Positions 5-13,848 are shown, numbered from the stretch's first letter. The stretch is DNA of 64,000 bases from Bacilli bacterium (GCA_041653015.1 JBAZGG010000006.1:574-64573), one strand, 5' to 3'. The notes: generated from the sequence alone by a model not told the origin. Numbers and translations are program-made.

Positions 5-1885
5 ATGTGGATATTCCTCGTCCTATTAGCTTATTTTGTAGAAAATGCTGTCGTTTTTACTTTTCCATTTACAAGAGGTTTCTCCGTTGTGGAGTATTCG
101 TGTTTGTTCATCGGATTAATCGCTCTAGGAGCATGCTATGTCTTTTTTGAAAAAAAGTACAACGGATTTCAATTATCAAAAAAGGAGTTATTATTCGGCA
201 TTATCCTCTTATCGCTGTTGACTATTAACATCATTGTGATATTGACCGCTCCTGACGCTTCAATCAACGAATTTGTCGCGCCGAGCGGAATCACTTATTT
301 TGCAATTTATGAAATATCTGCTGCTCAGCGAGTGTATTATTGCCTTGCCGCCGTTATCGCTTTTGCTGTTCCGTTCATCATCGTGTGTATTTTGCCAAGA
401 AAGTTTTATTCCTTTAGCCAGTTTAACATCGTGTACTATGCTTGCTTAATCGTCGCTGGCCTATCGATTATTTTTAGCCTTATTTTTGAATTTAATAATT
501 ATGTTTTGTTCTTCACAAAATTTTCATCGATGCAATCGAGCGAATACGCTATTCAATCATTCTTCTTCAATCGCAATATCTATGGTTTATTCTTGTTTGT
601 CTGCATCTTCATCTGCGCTTATTTAAATTGTCGCAAACATCATTGGTATTACTATTTGATGATGGCCGTTCTCTTGCTCTTCATGTTCTTCACGCTCGTT
701 AAGACGACATTAGTGCTCGGCGTCGTCTTTGTTTTCATCTATTGCGTGATTCGCATCGTCACCACTTTCAAAGAGAACATGAAGCGCAACGCCATCATCT
801 CTTCGATTATCGGTGTTATCATCATCGCCGGAGTTACTGTTCTCATCTCTTCATATTATGTTCACGCCCCTCTTCTTCTTAAGATTAAATCTCTCTTTGA
901 CCGATTATTTATCGATGTCGGCCAATCGACATTTGCCTCGAGAACTGTCATCTGGAATTATTCATTTCTCATCATCGGTGATATTCCACATTTTATCTTC
1001 GGTCGAGGAATAGGGGTCTTCGATTCCTCCTTATATGCGATGACCTCATCTGATCCAAATGTTTTAGACATCACATCCTTCGCTCATAATTCAGCTATCG
1101 ATCTTCTCGGAAAAGGTGGCATTTTATACCTGCTGCTCTATCTCGCCTTGATGGTCTATGGCGTCTATTCCCTTTTCAAGATGGCGAAATATCATCGTTC
1201 ACTCGCTTTAACCTCTCTATTATTTGTCTTTATGATTTTAGTCGCTGGAATGCTCGAATGCTGGTATTTCTTCTCCTTCAATATTTCGAATATTTTGTTG
1301 ACCATTCTCGTGTTTGTGCCAGCCTTTTCCTTCAACTATCAGCAAAAGCACAAAGAGCAGTTGAGCAGCGGTGTTCAGCCACGCCTCAACCTGCCGTTTA
1401 AAAACGTTGTGAAAAAACCTTATTCATTGCCGCATATTCTGACCCTTTTAGGTCCGGTGATCGGTTTTGCCATCGGCTCTCTCTCATTCTTCGTCAATTA
1501 CTGGAACTTCAGCACTATTTCGCTCATTCTCATCATCGTTCAAATCGTCTTATTACTCGGTGCAGTTTTTCCGTTCGCTTTCTACGTCTATCATTCACAT
1601 CATAAAAAGGATGGTCACAACATCAATTGCTTCATGTTTTATGCGATAAGTTTGGTGAGTATACTCGCCCTTTCGACGCTTCTGTCTTTAATCCCTGGAA
1701 TAGTTGAACCGATATCACTTGTGATATTATTCGTCGTCACCTGCATCGTTTACTATTCGGTTATGATGATATTTGAGTTCCCATTCTTCCCATTTTATAA
1801 ACTCATAAATAAAATTGATGCCTTCGTGCAAAAAATCTTTGCTAGGCAAATCGCTAACGATTCAAAAGAAACTCGCAATCAATAA
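5..1885 (+). CDS. Polytopic membrane protein, O-antigen ligase / Wzy-type polysaccharide polymerase-like. It may be 5'-partial at the window edge.
   Basis: The 626-aa ORF has more than ten hydrophobic helices and a large loop region. It sits directly upstream of GT2 and GT4 glycosyltransferases. The frame starts at nt 5, so upstream extension cannot be excluded. Confidence 0.45.
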   Translation: MWIFLVLLAYFVENAVVFTFPFTRGFSVVEYSCLFIGLIALGACYVFFEKKYNGFQLSKKELLFGIILLSLLTINIIVILTAPDASINEFVAPSGITYFAIYEISAAQRVYYCLAAVIAFAVPFIIVCILPRKFYSFSQFNIVYYACLIVAGLSIIFSLIFEFNNYVLFFTKFSSMQSSEYAIQSFFFNRNIYGLFLFVCIFICAYLNCRKHHWYYYLMMAVLLLFMFFTLVKTTLVLGVVFVFIYCVIRIVTTFKENMKRNAIISSIIGVIIIAGVTVLISSYYVHAPLLLKIKSLFDRLFIDVGQSTFASRTVIWNYSFLIIGDIPHFIFGRGIGVFDSSLYAMTSSDPNVLDITSFAHNSAIDLLGKGGILYLLLYLALMVYGVYSLFKMAKYHRSLALTSLLFVFMILVAGMLECWYFFSFNISNILLTILVFVPAFSFNYQQKHKEQLSSGVQPRLNLPFKNVVKKPYSLPHILTLLGPVIGFAIGSLSFFVNYWNFSTISLILIIVQIVLLLGAVFPFAFYVYHSHHKKDGHNINCFMFYAISLVSILALSTLLSLIPGIVEPISLVILFVVTCIVYYSVMMIFEFPFFPFYKLINKIDAFVQKIFARQIANDSKETRNQ

Positions 1886-2787
1886 TTGTTTTGTACGATA
1901 TAATTGTCTATTTGTGGAATTTTATTCTCGTTAAATAAACCGAGCGATTTGTATAGATAATTGTTCAATGTGTTTCTTTCGAGGAGCAAAACTTTGTTTT
2001 CCGCATCGCGCTCATAGAAATATTTCTCGTTCGATTTAATCGCAGTGATCATTATTCCAACTTTTTCTTGTTCCGAAAACTTGTAGATATTCTGTGTGAT
2101 GCGGGAGCAGATAATCGATTGATTTATTTCGGATAAAAACATGGTGACATCGCTTTCGATTTTGTCTTGAATGCAGATTAATTCGCCTTTGATATTTAAA
2201 CCGAATTGGATCGTTCCATCTGTGATTTCGCTCGTATCAAAATTTTGACCTAAATCAAATAATGACGAAACCAGCTGCTGAGTATTCGGTCCTTTATAAA
2301 GAGCTCCATATACTGAAGAAACGACGCTATCCTTATAAATTTTGTAGATGATTTTGATATCATTCTCATCAAAAAATCTCAACTCGTAGATATTGCTGAC
2401 ATAGTGAACAGTTTGGTAGTGGTTATCAGTAGGAACGAGCGAAATATCGCTTTCGTTGAAACATTCCGTATATAGTTTATCGCTATTTGCATATTTGGTT
2501 CGGCTTGAAACACTCCTGCTCTGTTTCACATATTGAAATTGCGAGCCGAGTTCTAAGCTCTCTAAATAAAGGCTTTCTTCAGCGATCAAGGATTCGCTTC
2601 GACATTCTAAAGAATTAGTATTGGAGTTATCGATATCGGCACACAGTTGTTCAAAGGTGATAGATTGATCGACGATAGTGTTATCTATCTCATTATTTTT
2701 TGAACAGGAAACAAGGCATAATGAGACGAGAGTTGCACAGGCGATTGAAGAAAATTTTAATTTTCTCATAGGCAAAGTATAGAACAA
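1879..2787 (-). CDS. Hypothetical lipoprotein
   Basis: N-terminal signal peptide with a canonical lipobox (LVSC followed by SKNN). No recognisable catalytic motif. Confidence 0.45.
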   Translation of the reverse strand: MFYTLPMRKLKFSSIACATLVSLCLVSCSKNNEIDNTIVDQSITFEQLCADIDNSNTNSLECRSESLIAEESLYLESLELGSQFQYVKQSRSVSSRTKYANSDKLYTECFNESDISLVPTDNHYQTVHYVSNIYELRFFDENDIKIIYKIYKDSVVSSVYGALYKGPNTQQLVSSLFDLGQNFDTSEITDGTIQFGLNIKGELICIQDKIESDVTMFLSEINQSIICSRITQNIYKFSEQEKVGIMITAIKSNEKYFYERDAENKVLLLERNTLNNYLYKSLGLFNENKIPQIDNYIVQNNY

Positions 2788-2822
2788 AAAATATGTTTTA
2801 ACAAGTTAGCCCCTGTCATATA

Positions 2823-3755
2823 ATGTTAGAAACAATTATGGAAGAAATTCTCGTCTCAATTTTAACAGCTACCTTCAATCGCGCTCATCTCTTAAGAGAA
2901 ACGTTAACTTCTGTTCAGAATCAAAGCTATCGGAATATCGAATATATCATCCTTGATGATGAATCGACTGACAATACGAAAGAAGTGGTGGAAATTTTCG
3001 CGAAAAGTGTTCCTTTCCCTGTCCGCTATATCTATCACAAAAAATGCTATAAACATGGAGCGATGAATATTCTTTTTGCTGAAGCGAGAGGAAGATATGC
3101 GGTCATGGTGGATGACGACGATACGCTATTGCCAGACGCCATTAAAGACTTAGTGTCAATTTTTAAGTCGCTGCCGAATAAGAATGACTATGCTTCAGTG
3201 GTGGGTCGCGCCACGATTAATACCACTGGTGAGATGGAAGGTGAGCTATACCCCGATGATATCAATGAGAAGCCTTGGAAACGCTCTTTAAAAATGGCGA
3301 GAAAAATTTCTGGTGATAAGCTTTCGCTGATGAACCTCGATATATATAAAAATTATTGCATACCCACTCCCGAGGGAGTTAGTTTTGTCACCGAATCTGT
3401 TCTGTGGAATGAAGTGCTATCGCAGTATCGCGAATACTATACGAATATCGTCGTTCTCAACTGCACGAGGCACGCAGGCTATCATTTGAGCGCGCCGACA
3501 AAGAATTACCAATATTTTTTGAACTGGTATTTCTATTCTTTGTACATGCTCAACAACAAAGAAAAATATCCTCTGTTTAAAATAGATCGCTCTTTTCAAC
3601 GTTTGAATTATGCGGCATTTACTTGTAGAGTAAAAAAAGAGGACAAGGAAAAGTTTGGTGAACTGAAATATAAAAGCGATAGATTTTTAATCGCTTTGTT
3701 GATGCCGATCATGTTCTTTGTTCAATTAATAAAATATGGAAAACGCCAAGATTAA
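2823..3755 (+). CDS. Family 2 glycosyltransferase
   Basis: GT2 N-terminal fold motifs: ILTATFNRAHLL, YIILDDESTDNT, and the acidic DXD-like VMVDDDD. Confidence 0.7.
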   Translation: MLETIMEEILVSILTATFNRAHLLRETLTSVQNQSYRNIEYIILDDESTDNTKEVVEIFAKSVPFPVRYIYHKKCYKHGAMNILFAEARGRYAVMVDDDDTLLPDAIKDLVSIFKSLPNKNDYASVVGRATINTTGEMEGELYPDDINEKPWKRSLKMARKISGDKLSLMNLDIYKNYCIPTPEGVSFVTESVLWNEVLSQYREYYTNIVVLNCTRHAGYHLSAPTKNYQYFLNWYFYSLYMLNNKEKYPLFKIDRSFQRLNYAAFTCRVKKEDKEKFGELKYKSDRFLIALLMPIMFFVQLIKYGKRQD

Positions 3756-4872
3756 AGTTTTATATATTATTCCATCACTAAATTTAGGTGGCATGGAAAC
3801 TTTTGCTGTCAATCTGTTTAAAGCCATCGATAAGAATCGTTTTGAGATTCATTTTTTGCTCAATACCTATGGTTCGAAAGACTACTACTTGGATGAGGTG
3901 ACTAAATTAGGAGGAATCGTTCACAAGACCGATAAGGATATGATATCGAACAAATTTAGGCGCATTAATAAGTTTCAGAAAGACATCATTAAAATTATCG
4001 AAACTGAAAAGATTGATGTCGTTCATATCCACACCTGCTACTCACTCCTTTACATAGCTGCAAAAGCTGCGAAAAAGGCCGGATGCAAAACAATTATTAT
4101 CCATTCGCATTCGACGAGCGCAAATCAGGAGCGTTTTCTGGCAAAAGTGTTCAGATATCGCGCCAGAAAATACGCGACTAATTATTTCGCTTGTGGCCTC
4201 GAAGCGGGCAATTGGCTATTTGGCAAGAAATTCTTGTTCTATAAGCAATCAAAAATCATACCAAATGGCTTCGATGTGAAAAGTTATAAATTCTCGCGAG
4301 ATCAACAAGTTGCTCAAAGAGCAAAATATGGTATCTCTGAGAGTGATTTTGTCATCGGTATGGTCTCTCGTCTAGCACGCGTAAAGAATCATATCTTTAT
4401 GCTAAATGTTTTTAATGCAATCAAGGATAGAAAGCATCTCAAACTAGTGATTGTCGGCGATGGTCCTGAAAAAGAAAATATTCAAGCATTTATCAACGAG
4501 CACAATCTCGTTTCACAAGTTAAACTATTAGGGCTTAAGAGCGATGTTTCATCAATTCTCAATATGTTTGATCTCTATGTTCTGCCTTCATTATATGAAG
4601 GTATTCCTACATCCGCTTTAGAGGCTCAGGCCAATGGTCTTCCCTGTATCATAAGCGATAGGGTGGACGCTCATTCCAAACTCCTCGATGATGCTTGTTT
4701 CCTTCCGATTGATTTCGGTACGGATGAATGGGTTAAGCAGATCGATATCATTAGGCATAGCCCCAAAGGAATTAATATCCGTCAAGAGAACAACCAAGAA
4801 ATAATCGACAAAGGCTATGATATGGTTGATGTCGCTAAGCAAATTGAAGAAGTTTATTCTATTAACAAATAG
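3736..4872 (+). CDS. GT4 (GT1-family) glycosyltransferase
   Basis: C-terminal EX7E-type motif EGIPTSALEAQANGLPCIISD, typical of retaining GT-B glycosyltransferases. Overlaps the upstream GT2 by 20 nt, so the two are an operon. Confidence 0.75.
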   Translation: MENAKIKVLYIIPSLNLGGMETFAVNLFKAIDKNRFEIHFLLNTYGSKDYYLDEVTKLGGIVHKTDKDMISNKFRRINKFQKDIIKIIETEKIDVVHIHTCYSLLYIAAKAAKKAGCKTIIIHSHSTSANQERFLAKVFRYRARKYATNYFACGLEAGNWLFGKKFLFYKQSKIIPNGFDVKSYKFSRDQQVAQRAKYGISESDFVIGMVSRLARVKNHIFMLNVFNAIKDRKHLKLVIVGDGPEKENIQAFINEHNLVSQVKLLGLKSDVSSILNMFDLYVLPSLYEGIPTSALEAQANGLPCIISDRVDAHSKLLDDACFLPIDFGTDEWVKQIDIIRHSPKGINIRQENNQEIIDKGYDMVDVAKQIEEVYSINK

Positions 4873-4926: not shown

Positions 4927-5014
4927 GCCCGAGTGGTGAAATTGGTAGACGCACTGGACTCAAAATCCAGCGAGTGTTGAACTCATACCGGTTCAAGTCC
5001 GGTCTCGGGCACCA
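4927..5014 (+). tRNA. tRNA-Leu(CAA)
   Basis: Acceptor stem GCCCGAG/CTCGGGC, anticodon loop CTCAAAA (CAA), long variable arm (type II), genomically encoded CCA. Confidence 0.85.
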
Positions 5015-5146
5015 GCTCAATTAATTTGAATTCATTCATTAGGTTGAATTTTAGGTCTGGTTATATGAAAATCAAGTGTTTTGTTGCTTATAATTATTTC
5101 CTTTGCTATGCGTTAATTGTATTAATTGAAAAATAGAGAACTTATT

Positions 5147-5656
5147 ATGAAAAATAAAATGAGCACACAAACAATTATATGCGTTCTGTGTTTGCCAATA
5201 TCGTGTCTCCTGTTTAGCTGCCGTCGGCCTAATCCTATTTTAGAACAGTACTCTGATTTTCTTCATGTTGAAAATATGCTCGAGTATTGTCTGACTTATG
5301 GTGTTTATAATGGCGAAGGCAAGTTTTATCTTGATGGTAACACTCGCTTTGATGATGTTGTTGTGGATGATGGGCGACTTTGTTCCGCTCTTTTATCTTT
5401 AAAACTCGTTGAAACGGCCGTTGATATACAAGATAGTTCAATGGAAAATCTGACAAGGCTAGTTAATTATTATGTTCCATTTGATGATTACGCGTATGTC
5501 GTAGTATATGAAGGCGACATTTTAGGTTGCGAAATTTATCCCGACCTATCCATTCCATATTGCAGATATTTCGATTTAGAAAGAGGAAAAGCGCTGGAAT
5601 TGTACACATTAGCGGTAGATGTTCGCGACGATGCTAATCAAAAACAAATCCATTGA
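5147..5656 (+). CDS. Hypothetical secreted protein or lipoprotein
   Basis: Signal peptide with LLFSC. The ORF in the track begins at a TTG (5126); an internal ATG at 5147 is the more plausible start. Confidence 0.4.
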   Translation: MKNKMSTQTIICVLCLPISCLLFSCRRPNPILEQYSDFLHVENMLEYCLTYGVYNGEGKFYLDGNTRFDDVVVDDGRLCSALLSLKLVETAVDIQDSSMENLTRLVNYYVPFDDYAYVVVYEGDILGCEIYPDLSIPYCRYFDLERGKALELYTLAVDVRDDANQKQIH

Positions 5657-7467
5657 TCATATGTTAATTTTTCTCAACAGTATGTCCGTTTATTCACTTG
5701 ATGCATTGCATTAGAATTGACAATAAATAACTTATAATTCTTCGAAGACCATTGACTTTGAATAGCTATAATTTTCAAATTATTAAAATCGTCTCTGCAA
5801 CGCGTAATCCGCATCAATCGTTTAATATTACGGATTTCTTCATATTAATATGAAAGTATCGTGAAGGTGTCGAAAACGTAATGGTTTTACAACTTTAAGG
5901 AATTGAACTTGCTAGGTTAACAAATTGGCTAATGTTAATCGCACATGAAGGTAGTGGTCGTGTAATTTCATGCAAGTTCATCACATTATAAAAGTTATGA
6001 TGATGGACGTTGACGATTAAAAGCGTTATTAACTTACAAACTATATCTCGTTCTTACATATACCATTACACATGAAAACATAACTTGTGAATGACTTAGA
6101 ATTAACGAAACTAAGTTTGATAAAAAGAAACTTTTTCGTCGTATTAATTTCTTTCTTTGATGCGTTATTATATATATGAAAACGATGGTATTTTTGTATA
6201 CTAATTTCTATTTCGAAATCCACCAAATGATTTTGTGATAGAGTTACTCAAAAAGGACGTTCATTGTTTTCCTTCTCAACTGGTTATTAACGAATTACAA
6301 AGCTAAAACAAGAGAAGAATAATTAGTTCGTATGAACAAATTAAAGAGGCATTAAAAAACAAATACTGCGACATATAGTTTAGCATCGAGAGCAAAACAG
6401 ATGCTGACAAAGCTTGTATTGAAAGTGACAAAGAGATTACTCATAACATGAAATTATTATCGACATGCAAGATTAACAAACCATGATTGACGCACTATTT
6501 TGTAGAAACGCTGTGAAAATTCCTCTGTTTGAAAAAAACGAAAAAGCAAGATATAAATGGTTCAACGATACCCATTATCTGGGTTATTTTTTTGAATTAT
6601 TGTTTGACATATAAAATGATTTCAAAAACTACATTTTTATTACTTTGGACAATTGTTTTTGAATCATCATCAAAACTAGAATGTGAATTCAAGAAAATTG
6701 TAGACAGAAATATTGAAATTTTATCGTTCGGCTCAGTTCAGAAATCATTAAAATGCTTCTCAATTGAAGAAAGAATAGATTCCGAAGTTGTCACGAGGAA
6801 GGATTTGTCCCAAGAAATTTGAAAGTTATTGAAATTAACGAAAATATATCAACTTAATTTCACGATTGTATTTTCAATTTATTTTCTTCAGAAATTGAAA
6901 TATCTTGGGAGAAAAATTTCGAAAACAATATTACCATATATAAAGCATCTTTCGATGACATTATTTGCCAACTTTCTCTATCAAAAAAAATCAGCTTGCA
7001 TTTTTTCTCATGTTAATTTAGCGAATTAATTGAACGAAATGGAAATTGAAGTAAAACTATTTATTTAATCGAAATTAAAGTTTTCAATAATTTCATATCA
7101 TTATGAGAAAAAGCAAAAAAACAACGGGCAATCTTTGTTGGTTCCTTTTATTGAATATTTCGAAGCCACAATCAATCAATCCCTCAAGCCTAAAGAACTA
7201 GTGTAAGACACAGATGATCCACCATTTTAATCTCTGATATATATTTGATTAATCTAGTTCAAAAACTGCACCAATCCACATTTAATCAAAGATTTCGATT
7301 TTTTAAAATCTCCAATTGTGTTTTTGACATTTTTGACTATTCAGAGAAACTTTGCATCGGCGTATATATGGGTGCTAAACATATTATTCTGCAAGTAATG
7401 CGATGAATAATGCGATACTCTCTTTTCTCTTGCAAATTTGTTATATACTATTTATAAGGATTGATAT

Positions 7468-8838
7468 ATGTTTTCAAAATATAAAAGTATTCATGAAGCG
7501 ATGCTGTTGGTTTATGAAGAATTAGAGAAAATAATTAAAAAGAACAAAATTACGGAGATATCAAGATCAAAGGAAATCGAAATAATTTGGAACTCGCTTT
7601 GTTTATCTTTTAGTTCCTATGCCCGTGATATTAACGTTTTTTTAGAGAATCTTGATAAAACGTATGATTCAGTAATGCCAAAATATGACTTTTTGGTGGC
7701 ATTTCTGTGGTTCTATGATAAAGAACGTTTATTCGCTCCTTTGAATGACAAGTTTAAATATAAAAATTTGGCATTCTCAGGCACCTATAGCAAAAGCACT
7801 ATTGAAGAAGGAATTCGAATTCGTGATTACTTCATTTTGCCAATAATTCATAGTGAAATAAAGGGCAAACTTATTAACAATTACGAAAAAATTGTTAGCA
7901 AAACCGTTCACGAGAAAAATATCATAAATAGATTTCTATTGAATTATTCAATTGTAAAAAACAAAGATAATCTGATTTCTTTGAAAACAATTGAGATGCA
8001 CAAATTTGTTGAGCGTATCAAAAGTAATGGATTGAAAGTAGCTCTAAATCCTATAGCATATAAAAACTTTGAATACTATTTTACGATGATAACTCACGTG
8101 AATCCATGCCCGTCTTTCTCCGTGAAAGTTGTTGAAGACCATGAAAAAGAATTAATTAATGTTTTTTCAGATTCATTGAACAAAAGCGTGGCCAAGGGTG
8201 TTGATCTTATTATATTTCCCGAAATGCATTTGACTACAAAATTGCTTGAGCAAATACCATCTATGATAAAGTACTTGAAAATAGAAAGACAAAGTTTAAT
8301 CATGGTAGGTACTCTATCGAATGAAACCTCCAACATGGCTTATTTATTTGATAACTATGGTAATTTAGTTTTAAAACAAAAAAAATATGGACAGTTTCTT
8401 TTGAGGGATCCTAATAATATAAACATCTCTTATGTCGAGGGCAGAGAATGGAATGATGCCGAAGATGTTTTGCTAGCTTTGCTAGACATAGTTGATTTCG
8501 GAAGAATGTCAATTTTTATTTGCAAAGATATTTATGAACCTAAAAAAAAGGATGCATTAATCAATTGTTCGGTTGATTTTCTTTTAATGCCATCATATTC
8601 TGAATCAAATTCAATCTCTGATTGTTTAAATGACTTAGCAAAATCGAGGGTAATTAGTTTTTTTGTGAATTCTTTTAATGCTTTTCTAAAAAAGAAAGAA
8701 AACATCGAAAAAATTCTTGGCAAAGTTGTATTGCCGTATTGGGATGAATGGCACAAGCAGAAATTTGTTGAGCATGTTTTGAATCCAAAAATCACGCGAA
8801 TTGAAAGAGGCAGCCTGACTATCGATTTAATTCTTTGA
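7468..8838 (+). CDS. Two-domain protein: an unknown N-terminal domain of about 230 aa fused to a carbon-nitrogen hydrolase (nitrilase-superfamily) domain
   Basis: The C-terminal half carries the E-K-C catalytic triad context of CN-hydrolases: DLIIFPEM (Glu), LVLKQKKYGQF (Lys), MSIFICKDIYEP (Cys). The N-terminal half has no recognisable motif. Confidence 0.55.
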   Translation: MFSKYKSIHEAMLLVYEELEKIIKKNKITEISRSKEIEIIWNSLCLSFSSYARDINVFLENLDKTYDSVMPKYDFLVAFLWFYDKERLFAPLNDKFKYKNLAFSGTYSKSTIEEGIRIRDYFILPIIHSEIKGKLINNYEKIVSKTVHEKNIINRFLLNYSIVKNKDNLISLKTIEMHKFVERIKSNGLKVALNPIAYKNFEYYFTMITHVNPCPSFSVKVVEDHEKELINVFSDSLNKSVAKGVDLIIFPEMHLTTKLLEQIPSMIKYLKIERQSLIMVGTLSNETSNMAYLFDNYGNLVLKQKKYGQFLLRDPNNINISYVEGREWNDAEDVLLALLDIVDFGRMSIFICKDIYEPKKKDALINCSVDFLLMPSYSESNSISDCLNDLAKSRVISFFVNSFNAFLKKKENIEKILGKVVLPYWDEWHKQKFVEHVLNPKITRIERGSLTIDLIL

Positions 8839-8940
8839 CTCTTTTCCACATATCCTATATTGCATTTATTTGAAATCTATGATTGTTCATGATATTATTA
8901 CAATGTGAATGAACAATGATGAACTAATGAGGAAAAGAAT

Positions 8941-9669
8941 ATGACGAGAGTAAAAATTGATTTAAATAGAAAAATTGATGTATTAAGACAAAGAGTTTTG
9001 GATTTTGTGCTATTGGATAAGAGAGACAGCGACGCTGATTATGAAAAACTCGTCTACTCTATTCAAGAGATTGAATTAAGCCGAGATGACGAGTTCGAGA
9101 AAGGCTACCTAAAATGCTTAGCTGATATATTGACCGCAAAAGATATTTTCGATACGGATACAAAGATTTTTGTTGACATTAGCAAACACCAGAATTCTGC
9201 AGCACTTGTTAGTTTATTGGCAGAGCATAATTCTCTTGGGCATCAAGAACTTGCAGAAAAACTTAAATTGTCCAAACAAGGACTCTCCAATCTTATAAAA
9301 GCTTTGTCCGAAACAAGAATTACTGACGAATGGAAAGTAGGAAGAAGCAAAATTTATTCTTTGACAAAAAAAGGTTTCTTGTTTTTGGAATGGTATGATT
9401 TGAATAATAAGAAATTATTGTTGGAGAAAAACAGCGCGTGGTTTGAATGGTTGAAAGATAAATTTGAGCCGTCTGCTGTTGTCGATAATCACGTCCCAAA
9501 TTTTGCAAAAGTTGAACCAGATAAGAGTTTTATTAACGCTAAGTGTGTGCTTAATCGAATTATAGAAAATGAGAATTCGCAAATTATTGATATTAGGGGT
9601 CAAGATTCAACGTTATATAAAGATGGTAATAAATTGCTGCTTAGTATGGCTTTGGGAGGAGAAAGATGA
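8941..9669 (+). CDS. Winged-helix (MarR/PadR-like) DNA-binding protein
   Basis: Central HTH segment LGHQELAEKLKLSKQGLSNLIKALSE, followed by a wing (WKVGRSKIYSLTKKG). Overlaps the downstream GIY-YIG gene by 4 nt. Confidence 0.5.
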   Translation: MTRVKIDLNRKIDVLRQRVLDFVLLDKRDSDADYEKLVYSIQEIELSRDDEFEKGYLKCLADILTAKDIFDTDTKIFVDISKHQNSAALVSLLAEHNSLGHQELAEKLKLSKQGLSNLIKALSETRITDEWKVGRSKIYSLTKKGFLFLEWYDLNNKKLLLEKNSAWFEWLKDKFEPSAVVDNHVPNFAKVEPDKSFINAKCVLNRIIENENSQIIDIRGQDSTLYKDGNKLLLSMALGGER

Positions 9670-10094
9670 AACAAGAATACTATTTAAAATTTAATGATTA
9701 TGTCGAGAATCCAAAAAATCTTCCAAGTGTGTCAGGAATATATTTAATTCGTAAGACAAAAAGAAAAAATGACGGGACCTTATCAGTTGAGTTATTGTAC
9801 GTAGGCAAAGCAGAAAACTTGAATGATAGATTTTCAGATCCAAACAAACACGAAGGATATGTCAAAGCTCAAAAATTATGTTCAAATTCAAAAGATAATT
9901 CGTATGTTTCAATTTCGTATGCCGAATGCCCAAAAAATAGTCTTGATAGAGTTGAGGCTTGTCTCATTTATACTAGCAAACCCAAACTCAACACTTTTAA
10001 TACAAAAACATTTGATTACGATGCAACCACTGTGTATGTTGGCGGTATAAGAAAGTCGAGCCTTGATAATATTAATGTCGCACAAAAAAAATAG
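9666..10094 (+). CDS. GIY-YIG domain nuclease
   Basis: GIY-YIG motifs SGIYLIR ... LYVGKAENLNDRF ... conserved Glu (VEACLIY) ... Asn. The 142-aa size is typical of standalone GIY-YIG effectors. Confidence 0.6.
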   Translation: MKQEYYLKFNDYVENPKNLPSVSGIYLIRKTKRKNDGTLSVELLYVGKAENLNDRFSDPNKHEGYVKAQKLCSNSKDNSYVSISYAECPKNSLDRVEACLIYTSKPKLNTFNTKTFDYDATTVYVGGIRKSSLDNINVAQKK

Positions 10095-10745
10095 CGTCAA
10101 ATACGTAGCTCTGTTCTATATTACTTGTGCTGTATCCATCTTTTATTTTTGAAAATAAGCACATTTTTGATTCCAAATCGTTTTTTTAAGTAAATTCTTT
10201 TTTTGTTTTATATTGATTTTATACTAATTGTGCACCGAAAAGTTTCTTATAAATGATGTTAGTCAACCTATCAAGAAAATTAGGAATGCGGAATAAAACT
10301 AATTTACTGGATTGAATTGAGATAACTCATCCCGTTTAATGCGATTTAATAAAATCGCAAAGTGCGTATGAAAAATCTAGAATCGTCTTGATTGAAATCA
10401 TCAAAACTGTCAAACGTACATTAAGAATTTTTTCAAACATACACTGAAACCTTAAAGAAGAGTGAAACTTTGAGTAGAATGTTTGTGCTAATGTGTTAGC
10501 GTTTGTGAAAGAAAATGGATAATGAAACCCATGAGTCTATTGCTAATAATAATTGCAATCTAACTTTTTAATTAAGTAGATTGAGTCGACAACAAACCTT
10601 TAAGAAAATGATTTTTCGATGCAACAATATAAAGAAAAATAGTGGGGAGTCGTTGTTTTTTATTTGGATGTTTTCGTCACTATGTTAAAATAACATTCAA
10701 TATCATCACGAATAATTTATACAACTCAAAAGAAGGGATTTAGAT

Positions 10746-11384
10746 ATGTACGAATTTGTTTCTAAAAACGAATTAAAGCCCGTTAAAGCAAAAATTGATT
10801 TGATAATTAGAAATCTTCAGCGACTATTAAAACAAGACAAAATAACATTTAAATCTATTCTTGTCGGTAGCGCAAAGAAACATCTTGTCACAAGATTAGT
10901 GGATGGGAATAAGGGATTTGATTTCGATTATAATTTGTCACTTCAAAAATGCCCAGATAATATTTCTCCAAAAGAGCTTAAAACACTTTTTCTTAGTAGG
11001 TTAAATATCGTACTAGAAGATAGTGGATATAAAAAAGCCGAAAACAATACACAATCAATGACCATCAAGTTTCTTGATTCTAGAAATAGCAGAATTATTC
11101 ATTCTTGTGACATTGCTATTGTCAGCGATCATGAGGAAGAAGGAGAGACGTTTCAAAAGATACTGATTTTCGACAAATCGAATAAAAAATATATTTGGAA
11201 TAAACGGCCACTCGTGAAGAATTATTCCGCAAAATTATCAAGCATACTCAGCAATGGCTTGTGGCATGAGGTTAAAGAAGAATATTTAAATCTAAAGAAC
11301 ACTAACAATGATTCTGAAAAGAAATCATTTCAACTGTATCTGGAAGCTCTAAACAACGTGTACAACCATTATGACTGGAATTAA
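10746..11384 (+). CDS. Polβ-superfamily nucleotidyltransferase (SMODS/CD-NTase-like or MNT-like)
   Basis: GS...DxD active-site pattern (VGSAKKHLVTRLVDGNKGFDFDYNL) plus a third acidic residue on a later strand (HSCDIAIV). RBS AAGAAGGGA upstream. Confidence 0.55.
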   Translation: MYEFVSKNELKPVKAKIDLIIRNLQRLLKQDKITFKSILVGSAKKHLVTRLVDGNKGFDFDYNLSLQKCPDNISPKELKTLFLSRLNIVLEDSGYKKAENNTQSMTIKFLDSRNSRIIHSCDIAIVSDHEEEGETFQKILIFDKSNKKYIWNKRPLVKNYSAKLSSILSNGLWHEVKEEYLNLKNTNNDSEKKSFQLYLEALNNVYNHYDWN

Positions 11385-12099
11385 AGCAAAAAAACTTTCT
11401 TTGAATCTTTCAAAGGATGAATTCATTAAAAAAATGATTTTTCATACGGATGATGAAATTGAAAGATGTAAGAAGTACCTAGACTTGAAAGGCGTTGAAT
11501 ATCATATTGTACTTGCTAATTTTATTGGGTTGAATAACCATGGGAAGGTGGAATATAAGAAGGTTTCGTGCCTTTATCAATACGATAAAAGGATTCGAAA
11601 TATTCTTTACAAATATATATCTGCCTTTGAAGAAAGTATAAGAGCGTTTATATGCAATAAATATAGCCAAACAATTGATTCGTTCAAGAAAATTAGTGAA
11701 TCAATATGCGAAAGAATAAGCAGAGGTGGCAGTTTATCTCGTGAACTTGAAGATTTGGATTTAGGCAAGCTTTTGAATCTTGCTAAGAAGCTTTCGGCCG
11801 AAGAAAAAAGTAGATTGTTTGGCAAAACTGAAAAACTATCTGAAAACCTGAATGCAGTTAGGGAGTTGCGGAATGCAGTAAGTCATCATCGGCTACTATT
11901 CATTTATGAAGACTTTGAGACATGCTTTATCGATGGTAAAGAACTTGATTCCTTGCAAGCAAACATACTCAATCTTTATAAATTGATTAATCCCTATTAT
12001 CAAGAGTTTTTCAAAATAGCAATAAACGATGCGATTAAAGCCGACGATGATAGAGAATTTACAAACGCTATTCCAAAGACAGCTATTATTCGCATATGA
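11371..12099 (+). CDS. Abi_2 (AbiD/AbiF-like) HEPN-domain protein
   Basis: Rx4H HEPN motif in the Abi_2 context ELRNAVSHHRLLF. Overlaps the upstream nucleotidyltransferase by 14 nt (translational coupling). Confidence 0.55.
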   Translation: MTGIKAKKLSLNLSKDEFIKKMIFHTDDEIERCKKYLDLKGVEYHIVLANFIGLNNHGKVEYKKVSCLYQYDKRIRNILYKYISAFEESIRAFICNKYSQTIDSFKKISESICERISRGGSLSRELEDLDLGKLLNLAKKLSAEEKSRLFGKTEKLSENLNAVRELRNAVSHHRLLFIYEDFETCFIDGKELDSLQANILNLYKLINPYYQEFFKIAINDAIKADDDREFTNAIPKTAIIRI

Positions 12100-12211
12100 A
12101 AAAATATTGAAAGAATATGTTTATGTATAGGATGTCGGTTAAGAAGCCAAAAAGAGCGAAGAACAAAAATTTAAGGGTACTGATCGCGAGGCATATAATA
12201 CTGCTGGAAAA

Positions 12212-12760
12212 ATGCCGACAGCAAAATTTAGGAGTGTTGCTTACCATTTTGAAAAGTTGCGACACTCTTTGTCTTGTTTCAAACACAAAGAAATCCCAAC
12301 AATAAAGAAAATACAAATAAGCAATATCTCGAAATATACTCGTATGAAGAAATCTAAAAAATTGAAATACTTTGTCAAACGGAGATCCACAATAGTGGAA
12401 ACACCTGATTTTATTTCGCATGCAACAAAAAGAGTTATATTTAAGATTAGTCGGAAAATAGAAAAAATAATAATTCAATCCCTTTTTACAACAACAGAAA
12501 TAAATGCTATTTTCGTCATATATAAGACCATTAGAATAATTGTCGCCACAAAAAAGGTTATTGTGTCATTAGAAGGTTTTGTTAAAAATATCAGTCATAC
12601 AAGAGAATTCTTTACGTATTCTGAGGACGGACACTATGAAATCCTGGATGATTTAAAATCATTTTTAATAACACTTCAGTCAGGCAAAGAATTTGTCGAT
12701 AATATGAAGAAATTGTGCCAAACTATTGGATTAAAATACGAGCCTTTCAAGAAATCGTAG
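12212..12760 (+). CDS. Hypothetical Lys-rich protein (uncertain)
   Basis: ORF only, no motif. It overlaps an antisense ORF (12086-12478), so its reality is uncertain. Confidence 0.25.
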   Translation: MPTAKFRSVAYHFEKLRHSLSCFKHKEIPTIKKIQISNISKYTRMKKSKKLKYFVKRRSTIVETPDFISHATKRVIFKISRKIEKIIIQSLFTTTEINAIFVIYKTIRIIVATKKVIVSLEGFVKNISHTREFFTYSEDGHYEILDDLKSFLITLQSGKEFVDNMKKLCQTIGLKYEPFKKS

Positions 12761-13248
12761 CGAGCTTCAGATGTAACAAGCATAGTCAATACTATCTAAT
12801 TATTTTGAATCATTTTTATATCCAATATGTTAGTTATTTGATTGCGGAAATATGATAAATGAACGATTGAAGTTGACAAAATGCACATTATAAATACCAC
12901 GTTTCTTAATCTACACTTTTCGCTATGATTGATGGCTGTTGGCGGATCATTGCTGCTAACAGTTGTTCGCCACTTTGATCATAAATCACAGACACATTGT
13001 CTATAACACTTTGATTGAAGGCATCTTTGCCTTAATTAACTCAGTGCTTTTTAATTGCCCATAAACCTACGCCGAGTGGGAAAAGTTGTTAAAATGTTTT
13101 TCCTATGTTAAATAATGAAATCATGTGAATGCCAATGGTTGTACAACATCAAATTTGATATCTATTAATGTAAACGTTGCTAAATTTAGATTTTATGTTT
13201 ACAAAATGAGTTAAGCAATAATATACTTGAAAAAGAATAGGAGTATTT

Positions 13249-13848
13249 ATGAAAAATCAAAAGAGTATTTTAACGATTACCGCTCTAGCTCTTTTATGTA
13301 TCCCGATTGGCAAAATTCTCATCGACACAGGTCACATCTCTTTGATCGATGGTGCGAATGCTGATATCACAAAATATACAGTTCGACTCGATTCGACCAA
13401 TACGCCATCATTTTTAGGTGAGAGCTCTCTCGGATCAAATGAAATGGCAACGCCTAGTCGAAGTGTTCCATGGGTATATTACTCTGGATCTCGCACTTAT
13501 CCAGGCGCTCATATGGCCGTCGGTGATCTCTTGACTGGCTCGCAACAATTTACTTCTAGCTCTGTGAATTTTACTGGTGCGATCAGCGTGACGATCGATT
13601 GGACCTTGCTCAACGATTTGAATCCGCACGATGTTTCTGTGATGCTTTACAGACCCGGAGTCTATCCGATGAATATTTTATATTTCGATGGATTAACCTC
13701 TCCTCATACCTTTACGAGAACGGATATGGGCGCCGCTTATAAATCTCTTCATATCGGTCTTCAATTTTTCACGAATGAATCCGCTCCTGATGCGATTTTC
13801 GTCCTAAACTCTCTTGAAGTGGTGTACGACTGTATTCCCGTTTCTTAA
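13249..13848 (+). CDS. Secreted protein, paralog A of a duplicated family
   Basis: Signal peptide, then conserved blocks shared with the convergent ORF 14017-14631: YTxRLDSTNTPxFL, TPSRSVxW, LTSPHTFTRxD, AIFVLNxLEVVYDCIP. Confidence 0.55.
   Translation: MKNQKSILTITALALLCIPIGKILIDTGHISLIDGANADITKYTVRLDSTNTPSFLGESSLGSNEMATPSRSVPWVYYSGSRTYPGAHMAVGDLLTGSQQFTSSSVNFTGAISVTIDWTLLNDLNPHDVSVMLYRPGVYPMNILYFDGLTSPHTFTRTDMGAAYKSLHIGLQFFTNESAPDAIFVLNSLEVVYDCIPVS

Follow-up and report, generated by a model that had tools for sequence, protein, structure and literature searches.

A divergent nitrilase-type enzyme and its winged-helix partner as the core of a candidate conflict module in Bacillota and Mycoplasmatota

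Three adjacent genes, called A, B, and C below, were analysed in a 64,000-nt stretch of DNA from a Bacilli bacterium (GCA_041653015.1 JBAZGG010000006.1:574-64573; the whole stretch is referred to as the window, with positions counted from its first letter). Gene A is predicted to encode a divergent enzyme of the nitrilase superfamily, gene B a winged-helix-turn-helix (wHTH) protein, and gene C a stand-alone GIY-YIG nuclease. From sequence comparison, we give about even credence to the reading that these genes form a conflict module of two or three genes, rare and so far undescribed (defence or abortive infection, with wiring like that of toxin-antitoxin [TA] systems) of Bacillota and Mycoplasmatota. 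A narrower proposal is put forward tentatively, with confidence somewhat short of even: A and B would together represent an undescribed anti-phage or anti-mobile-element family, in which a TubR-like, repeat-binding wHTH protein, in place of a reverse transcriptase, CARF, or NACHT sensor, controls a nitrilase of a defence clade, and the slot behind B takes interchangeable effectors (GIY-YIG, HNH-like). An antiphage function would follow from genomic context only. An earlier note on this DNA (the original prediction) had described the locus as a three-gene operon; its claims are taken up where the results bear on them.

Results

Genes A and B are inherited together

Related loci (numbered L001 onwards) were gathered by exact-protein look-ups, one genome scan with a 10-sequence alignment, and one metagenome scan. 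The genome scan returned Mycoplasmatota WC30, a Tenericutes metagenome-assembled genome (MAG), and Natronincolaceae and Clostridiaceae MAGs. In every distinct locus with downstream sequence (15/15), the gene that follows the A homologue is of the B type. In L006, L007, L008, L009/L010, L013, L021, and L027, B was detected by hidden Markov model (HMM) search with E values from 1e-10 to 1e-81, the B proteins of L009, L010, L013, L021, and L027 being outside the HMM training set; the B-type gene of L025 (P0165) was identified by the B-family profile (E 1e-23). The second genes of the more divergent clade II (L011/12, L014, L019/20, L028) align to the B family over the segment from the KGY motif to the wing (hhalign probability 80.6%, E 1.3e-5).

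Pairwise identities of A and of B are strongly correlated over 11 loci (Mantel r 0.92, a value reached by 0 of 5000 permutations; r 0.86 without the close clade), which argues that A and B are inherited as a unit. Two further locus sets (L001 and L002/L004) contain the complete trio in different surroundings, identities among close loci being 66-78% for C, 68-72% for A, and 48-67% for B. Co-occurrence and co-variation, which had been suggested as a check on all three genes, thus hold for A and B (adjacent in 15 of 15 loci, Mantel r 0.92); C was found in the three closest loci only.

Gene A encodes a nitrilase-type enzyme

Gene A (7468-8838, + strand; open reading frame [ORF] call) encodes 456 aa, with an N-terminal helical domain and a nitrilase-superfamily (CN-hydrolase) domain. 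The latter covers residues ~186-440 (8023-8787, + strand) and contains the tetrad E252, K306, E324, and C352; the FPE, KQKKY, and FICKD motifs correspond to E252, K306, and C352, and a second glutamate, E324, completes the nitrilase tetrad. In a 90-member family alignment, no variation is seen at E252, N289, E324, or C352, K306 is kept in at least 90% of members, and the FPE and ICKD contexts are all but invariant. The profile of these 90 members was compared with solved structures, where yeast Nit3 (1f89) is the best match (E 4.3e-7; range to 1e-3) and where N-carbamoyl-D-amino-acid amidohydrolases (DCase), Nit2, NAD synthetase (NadE), and pantetheinase are matched as well; the Glu, Lys, second Glu, and Cys of the family align to the catalytic tetrad of solved nitrilases (1f89). 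A 4-sequence profile of A gave no match to PDB sequences. Taken alone, A falls below the cutoff of Pfam CN_hydrolase (PF00795; E 0.27, 11 bits, cutoff 23.2). Because the single sequence misses this threshold, the assignment of A to the nitrilases holds at family level only. The catalytic residues and motifs named in the original prediction are therefore upheld by the family profile, not by the single-sequence Pfam search. At family level, A is predicted to be a catalytically intact, divergent nitrilase-superfamily hydrolase.

Only three close homologues of A (68-72% identity) were found among 5.8 billion clustered proteins. A profile search of 1.84 billion representatives returned 203 relatives, almost all of 430-550 aa, and it is from this narrow length range that the two-part architecture of A is considered conserved. 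Among the 90 aligned members, 14 match Pfam CN_hydrolase at E<=0.01 (best 1.9e-5), 41 match PADLOC RTasNitrilase (best 5.6e-10), and 13 match PADLOC CARF_m7--CARF_nitrilase (best 5.8e-15), all matches to the two PADLOC models being confined to the nitrilase part of the proteins. We take RTasNitrilase, from its name and the paper of Mestre et al., to be the stand-alone C-N hydrolase of the UG5-small reverse transcriptases (RTs). Since members match the PADLOC models better than Pfam CN_hydrolase, A is placed in the sequence neighbourhood of defence-associated nitrilases.

The N-terminal region of A comprises residues 1-185 (7468-8022, + strand). Judged from the starts of profile matches and from secondary structure, the nitrilase core probably starts around residue 185 (LKVALNP), and the part outside the nitrilase is accordingly ~185 aa long and not the ~230 aa first proposed. 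A model of these 185 residues from a 33-sequence alignment (predicted local distance difference test [pLDDT] 76, predicted template modelling score [pTM] 0.74) consists of a confidently predicted four-helix bundle (residues 8-89) followed by a beta/alpha segment of lower confidence; no specific fold match was obtained for the modelled domain. Two candidate relationships were rejected for the N-terminus: a CARF domain (the region is helical, not Rossmann-like), and homology to B (hhalign probability 0.1%).

Gene A of a human-gut lineage (L019, 7241-8702) is split into ORFs of 85 and 408 aa. The 90% cluster concerned includes fragments of 82 and 408 aa (P0166, P0167), recorded on 26-32 contigs, and a frameshifted allele therefore appears to be widespread.

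Gene B encodes a winged-helix protein

Gene B (8941-9669, + strand) encodes 242 aa, with an N-terminal helical region, a central wHTH (residues ~86-150), and a variable C-terminal tail. The DNA-binding domain is assigned to 9196-9390 (+ strand) by alignment to TubR, ArsR, and MarR structures. As a single sequence, B gives sub-threshold wHTH matches only (HTH_11, MarR, ArsR, and the C-terminal wHTH of Csa3/CasR/CARF3). The family profile, compared with structures, has TubR of pBtoxis (4aso) as its best match (E 1.2e-6, over B residues ~86-150), followed by PH0061, AdcR/ZitR, ArsR, and MarR; the winged-helix call of the original prediction is borne out by this profile. Conserved motifs are HxELA, LSN, and IGRxKxYSLT; ahead of the wHTH, a helical region containing a KGY/LGF motif is conserved as well, and the C-terminal tail varies between members. 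B is accordingly predicted to be a TubR/ArsR-like winged-helix protein.

L026 encodes a B-family wHTH protein of 173 aa (1827-2348; profile E 6.5e-12) and no A homologue; the gene is located on a contig of many small ORFs, beside a T7 Gp5.9-like gene (RecBCD inhibitor family). It may be a phage-borne copy, which raises the possibility of a decoy or anti-defence use of B.

Tandem repeats and a second promoter lie between A and B

The A-B spacer of 102 bp is better conserved among close loci than the flanking coding ends. It contains a predicted internal promoter of the sigma-A/sigma-70 type for B and C (8870-8898, + strand; TTGAAA, 17 nt, TATTAT, extended TG), the best match of the region in a + strand scan (10/12, TG). 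This promoter is conserved in L001, L002, and L004; near-consensus promoters are found at the equivalent spot, together with repeats, in L007, L008, L013, and L021. A tandem direct repeat, ATGAAC-N4-ATGAAC (ATGAAC-AATG-ATGAAC; 8909-8924, + strand; period ~10-11 bp), is located between the -10 element and the ribosome-binding site of B. An inverted half-site, ATTGTTCAT (8882-8890, + strand), is located in the promoter spacer and is complementary to ATGAACAAT at 8909-8917; loci of the close clade share its GTTCAT core.

An exact match to RTGAAC-N4-RTGAAC occurs once in the 64-kb window, and this copy is found independently by TRF. Among the 15 loci first gathered, eight (L001-L005, L007, L008, L013) contain the motif, once each and always in the A-B spacer; RTGAAC repeats are also present in the A-B spacer of the later loci L016-L018 and L027, the last with three. 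Variants are GTGAAC-N4-GCGAAC in L021, TGTYAAC in L006, and RTGAGT/RTGACT in L009, L010, and L025. RTGAAC repeats are kept even where the identity of A is only ~25%. The predicted recognition helix of B covaries with the repeat: LSN/MTN with RTGAAC; FAN/LAN with RTGAGT/ACT; LTR with the two deviant versions. TubR binds tandem direct repeats (iterons). The repeats are probably the operator of B; from their conservation, the covariation of the recognition helix, and the kinship with TubR, we infer that B binds them and autoregulates B (and C). No Rfam match was obtained for 5000-13500 at E<=1, so the A-B spacer belongs to no known RNA family. In L009, L010, and L025, the repeats are located upstream of the -10 element; given this position and the Rfam result, a DNA operator is favoured over an RNA element of the 5' untranslated region.

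Gene A has its own -10-like element, without a repeat. This putative -10 region (7439-7449, + strand; TG-T-TATATA / TATACT, ~20 nt ahead of the start codon) was read from the sequence; a consensus scan made no promoter call for A because a good -35 hexamer is missing. A block GT.TA.A.T...GAGGA...ATG ahead of A is conserved in four close loci. As B and C have a conserved promoter and repeats of their own, two transcription units are more plausible than a plain operon: the adjacency of the three genes stands, and the three-gene operon of the original prediction, read as a unit with a single promoter, does not, the conserved promoter being located between A and B.

Two further observations concern these upstream regions. 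Shortly ahead of the putative A promoter, at 7396-7416, a 9-nt sequence is repeated in tandem (TAATGCGAT-GAA-TAATGCGAT); this repeat is not conserved in L001, L002, or L005. The B genes of L002 and L004 are called from a start that overlaps the RTGAAC repeat (L002, 5987-6002); the alignment suggests an internal Met (MARINIELN...) as the true start, and the public call is probably 10 codons too long.

Gene C and the variable third position

Gene C (9666-10094, + strand) encodes 142 aa and is essentially a bare catalytic domain, without a DNA-binding extension. It exceeds the cutoff of Pfam GIY_YIG_2 (23.8 bits, cutoff 22.4; 19.9 bits for GIY-YIG), which agrees with the stand-alone GIY-YIG nuclease originally predicted. 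Residues Y26, Y45, R55, E97, and N109 align to the GIY-YIG domain of UvrC (1yd6), and G24-I-Y26, Y45-V-G47, R55, E97, and N109 are invariant in the three known C homologues; C is thus predicted to be a GIY-YIG nuclease domain with all five catalytic residues. The stop codon of B and the start codon of C overlap by 4 nt (ATGA), and a GGAGG ribosome-binding site lies ahead of C, inside B; this arrangement predicts that C is translationally coupled to B.

The GIY-YIG gene is restricted to the window, L001, and L002/L004 (66-78% identity). In L021, the third gene encodes a 144-aa, HNH-like protein that carries DLDHIRP...NNLEPVHWVNNHDK and overlaps B by 11 nt. The third position is taken by a 570-aa P-loop protein in L007; by proteins of 451-453 aa without family matches in L009, L010, and L025; and by helical proteins of 150-244 aa in clade II. 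No co-oriented gene adjoins B in L006, L008, and L027. Because the third gene differs or is absent between loci, A and B are regarded as the conserved core and C as the occupant of a variable slot.

Genomic context and distribution

The window locus adjoins a gene pair of nucleotidyltransferase (NTase)-like and Abi_2 type. In L001, the closest homologue of the trio, a ParB-N6/N4 methyltransferase, S-adenosylmethionine (SAM) synthetase, HNH, PIN, and DUF3846 surround the genes (296-4250, 7556-9222), a set typical of anti-restriction regions of phages or mobile elements. The flanks of L002/L004 encode an HTH_36 protein and unknown proteins. In L011/L012 (1-13491), the clade II genes A, B, and third gene are located between a DptH-like DUF87 protein (>1,700 aa) with AIPR and a dndEDCA phosphorothioation cluster; this context is a textbook defence island. 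Other neighbours are a D12 methyltransferase, an AAA_21/AAA_15 ATPase, and HicB (L021); AAA_14/DUF4143, AbiEii, and a transposase (L027); and AAA_15/21 and DUF3226, nearby (L025). L028 lies inside a conjugative element with AAA_10, TpcC, and NlpC/P60 genes. The distribution is sporadic and low-copy, nearly every 90% cluster having a single member; the A+B family is extremely rare and patchy, and is found in Bacillota and Mycoplasmatota.

The island in the window

The ORF call returned the three genes at the coordinates and lengths first given for them, together with the 4-nt overlap of B and C. Plausible ribosome-binding sites are present for A, B, and C; no intrinsic terminator was found on the + strand between A and B or after C. 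In public annotation, all three products are hypothetical or, according to the Joint Genome Institute (JGI), an ArsR regulator and an excinuclease subunit. The genes lie in an AT-rich island, as had been claimed (GC 0.28-0.33 over ~5.5-13 kb, against 0.36-0.44 in the flanks). The tRNA gene said to precede them directly, tRNA-Leu(CAA) at 4927-5014, is located 2.4 kb upstream of gene A and is not adjacent; neither att-type direct repeats of the tRNA-Leu 3' end nor an integrase was seen in the island.

Directly downstream of C, a second two-gene module (10746-12099) encodes a 212-aa protein and a 242-aa protein, the genes overlapping by 14 nt. The 212-aa protein has a GS...DFD motif of polymerase-beta-type nucleotidyltransferases, with sub-threshold matches to cyclases of CBASS (cyclic-oligonucleotide-based antiphage signalling system); the 242-aa protein has a significant match to Abi_2/AbiD (HEPN-type; Pfam 4e-11). 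The pair looks like an NTase-HEPN TA or abortive infection (Abi) pair. The neighbours had been named as an NTase and a HEPN protein; the latter is confirmed by Pfam, the former weakly, by the motif and the sub-threshold matches. With such a pair beside A, B, and C, the island may be read as a small defence cluster. Two AT-rich stretches without an ORF >100 aa and without an Rfam match at E<=1 (5657-7467, 1.8 kb; 10095-10745, 0.65 kb) may represent decayed genes or unannotated RNA.

Discussion

Proposed mechanism

By analogy with DRT1/UG5, CARF-nitrilase, and NACHT proteins annotated as having a CN-hydrolase domain, A would be a nitrilase effector, with a family-specific four-helix-bundle domain at its N-terminus; it is more likely an effector than a sensor because it shares its sequence neighbourhood with the effectors of DRT1/UG5 and CARF-nitrilase. 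B would bind the tandem RTGAAC repeats at its own promoter, and would so hold the level of B and of the downstream gene constant. Its main job would concern A: B may keep the nitrilase inactive, for example by blocking the oligomerisation on which nitrilase activity depends, or may couple it to a DNA-borne infection signal. An action mainly on A, at the protein level, is proposed because several loci give B nothing else to regulate, yet B always accompanies A and co-diverges with it. C would be an accessory second effector, a minimal GIY-YIG nuclease, which may be targeted or restrained by B, borrowing the DNA binding of the latter. For the sensor or enzyme, DNA-binding protein, and nuclease effector of the original prediction, this means that the domain calls are retained; the nitrilase is the likelier effector, and the conserved unit is A with B, the nuclease being swappable.

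Several observations weigh against this proposal. The operator is not ahead of A, so transcriptional control of A by B is not demonstrable, and physical contact of A with B, or of B with C, is pure inference. The link of A to defence nitrilases depends on modest matches of family members, not of the window protein itself, which has no match in PADLOC (at E<=1) or NCBIfam; the AF2 model of full-length A from 4 sequences is poor (pLDDT 45.6) and does not confirm the alpha-beta-beta-alpha sandwich fold of nitrilases. The HNH-like nature of the third gene of L021, on which the interchangeable slot partly depends, is given by a sub-threshold Pfam match (E 0.023), with nothing in PDB or NCBIfam. The sample is small (15 distinct loci), and some of it lies among housekeeping genes: L019/L020 are located between pilus genes and pheST, and L008 and L006 among polysaccharide genes. 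No A homologues were found by tblastn in INPHARED phages or in PLSDB (72,556 plasmids), and no A relatives by a pattern scan of IMG/VR.

Alternative explanations

The genes might instead be an addiction (TA) module of a plasmid or island with no antiphage role, A and/or C being toxins, B an autoregulated antitoxin, and loss of the module killing the cell. We regard this as unlikely. The promoter and operator of B do look autoregulated; B and C are coupled in antitoxin-then-toxin order; the distribution is sporadic and low-copy, with mostly single-member 90% clusters; and members are found in an integrative and conjugative element and beside transposase, AbiE, and HicB genes. Both B (160-340 aa) and A (~450-500 aa) are, however, large for a type II pair, the operator is downstream of A rather than ahead of the toxin gene, and 72,556 plasmids are without an A homologue. 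This explanation also overlaps strongly with a defence module, since TA and abortive infection are not mutually exclusive. A metabolic or detoxification amidase (A) with a ligand-responsive regulator of the MarR/ArsR type (B), and with the nuclease as an unrelated neighbour, would be in keeping with a superfamily that consists mostly of small-molecule amidases (JGI calls two homologues 'predicted amidohydrolase'), with the resemblance of B to ArsR, MarR, and AdcR repressors, and with the location of several loci amid polysaccharide or housekeeping genes. It fits poorly because the promoter and operator serve B (and C), not A; because the family is extremely rare and patchy, without conserved metabolic partners such as transporters; because two independent forms of nuclease gene overlap B; and because contexts are repeatedly those of defence or mobile elements. 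Members moreover fit defence nitrilase models better than the generic CN_hydrolase, and we consider the amidase very improbable.

For C alone, a different origin is conceivable. GIY-YIG and HNH are classic families of free-standing homing endonucleases, and the GIY-YIG gene (and the HNH-like gene of L021) could be a selfish insertion of this type behind B, in agreement with a third position that is variable and often empty and with the presence of C in the closest clade only. This seems quite doubtful: C is less likely to be a homing endonuclease because it is small (just 142 aa, without a DNA-binding extension), is coupled to B (4-nt overlap, with a good ribosome-binding site inside B), and shows divergence parallel to that of A and B across three differently flanked loci. 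It is also without a PHROG match.

Significance

Nitrilase domains, needed for DRT1 immunity, recur as effector modules in UG5, CARF, and NACHT proteins, and a compact module, with its stand-alone nitrilase of this type, small DNA-binding partner, and sharply delimited cis element, would be much easier to dissect by genetics and biochemistry than a 1,200-aa, filament-forming RT-nitrilase. If the proposal is true, a minimal two-protein A+B system would be possibly the simplest handle on the substrate of defence nitrilases; the RTGAAC repeats and the covarying recognition helix would be an immediately testable protein-DNA pair, and the interchangeable nuclease slot would add to the cases in which conflict systems swap their effectors as modules. 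Should the locus prove to be a regulator and an amidase only, the finding is of small interest.

Comparison with known systems

No named system was matched by A+B or A-B-C in PADLOC-DB v2.0.0, NCBIfam r20, or PHROGs v4: A gave no match, B matched only the generic Csa3/CasR wHTH, and C only PDC-S14 (E 0.025). A full-text literature search for a defence system with a nitrilase and a wHTH or GIY-YIG protein found only work on RT-nitrilases. The view that the locus corresponds to no nameable defence or TA system therefore agrees with these databases and with the searchable literature.

TubR-tubC, the partition system of pBtoxis, provides the best structure match of B, and the putative site of B likewise consists of tandem repeats spaced by about one helical turn. 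TubR is ~100 aa long, is paired with a tubulin-like GTPase, and serves plasmid segregation, whereas B has additional N- and C-terminal regions and a link to a nitrilase, and its putative site comprises only 2-3 repeats at a promoter. Type II TA systems with toxin-first order and a separate antitoxin promoter are exemplified by MqsRA and HigBA. As in these, the gene of a potentially toxic enzyme is followed by that of an apparently autoregulated DNA-binding protein with its own promoter, and a partner gene is translationally coupled, here C to B. In contrast to type II systems, A and B are far bigger proteins, A has no operator ahead of it, and a nitrilase is not a known class of type II toxin. 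BrxR and CapW are representative of wHTH repressors of defence loci, winged-helix regulators tied genetically to a defence-type effector locus as B is to A; B differs in having no WYL/WCX Pfam matches, in the position of its gene behind that of the effector, and in its apparent target, which is B itself and not the effector gene.

CARF-nitrilase fusions (PADLOC CARF_m7--CARF_nitrilase) are presumably ancillary effectors of type III CRISPR systems, with predicted activation by cyclic oligoadenylate. Their layout of sensor plus nitrilase is shared with A, 13 of 90 members match their model, and B weakly resembles the wHTH of Csa3/CasR/CARF3. In contrast, the matches span the nitrilase half only (profile positions 212-378), the N-terminus of A is helical, and no CRISPR-cas genes are found nearby.

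A parallel in effector class is given by the class 3 UG/Abi RTs (DRT1/UG1, UG5-large, UG5-small). The nitrilases of this class branch separately from metabolic ones, and the C-N hydrolase of UG5-small is a protein of its own (PMC9226505). DRT1 immunity requires the nitrilase domain, which acts as the effector and must oligomerise; its substrate and the way it kills were still unknown in mid-2026 (PMC13275509). As in A, the nitrilase belongs to a shared sequence neighbourhood (41/90 members matching RTasNitrilase) with an intact tetrad; and as with the A+B module, class 3 systems are found in defence hotspots and their nitrilase is thought to be the effector (PMC13275509, PMC9226505). The A+B loci differ in that neither the window nor any related locus encodes a reverse transcriptase, a primase, or a transmembrane partner, and no RT domain is present in A, among its neighbours in the window, or in genes called in related loci; instead, A has a small four-helix-bundle N-terminus, an obligate wHTH partner with a repeat operator, and an optional nuclease. 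DRT class 3 thus supplies a precedent for the effector class; it offers none for the partner, the cis element, or the modular third slot.

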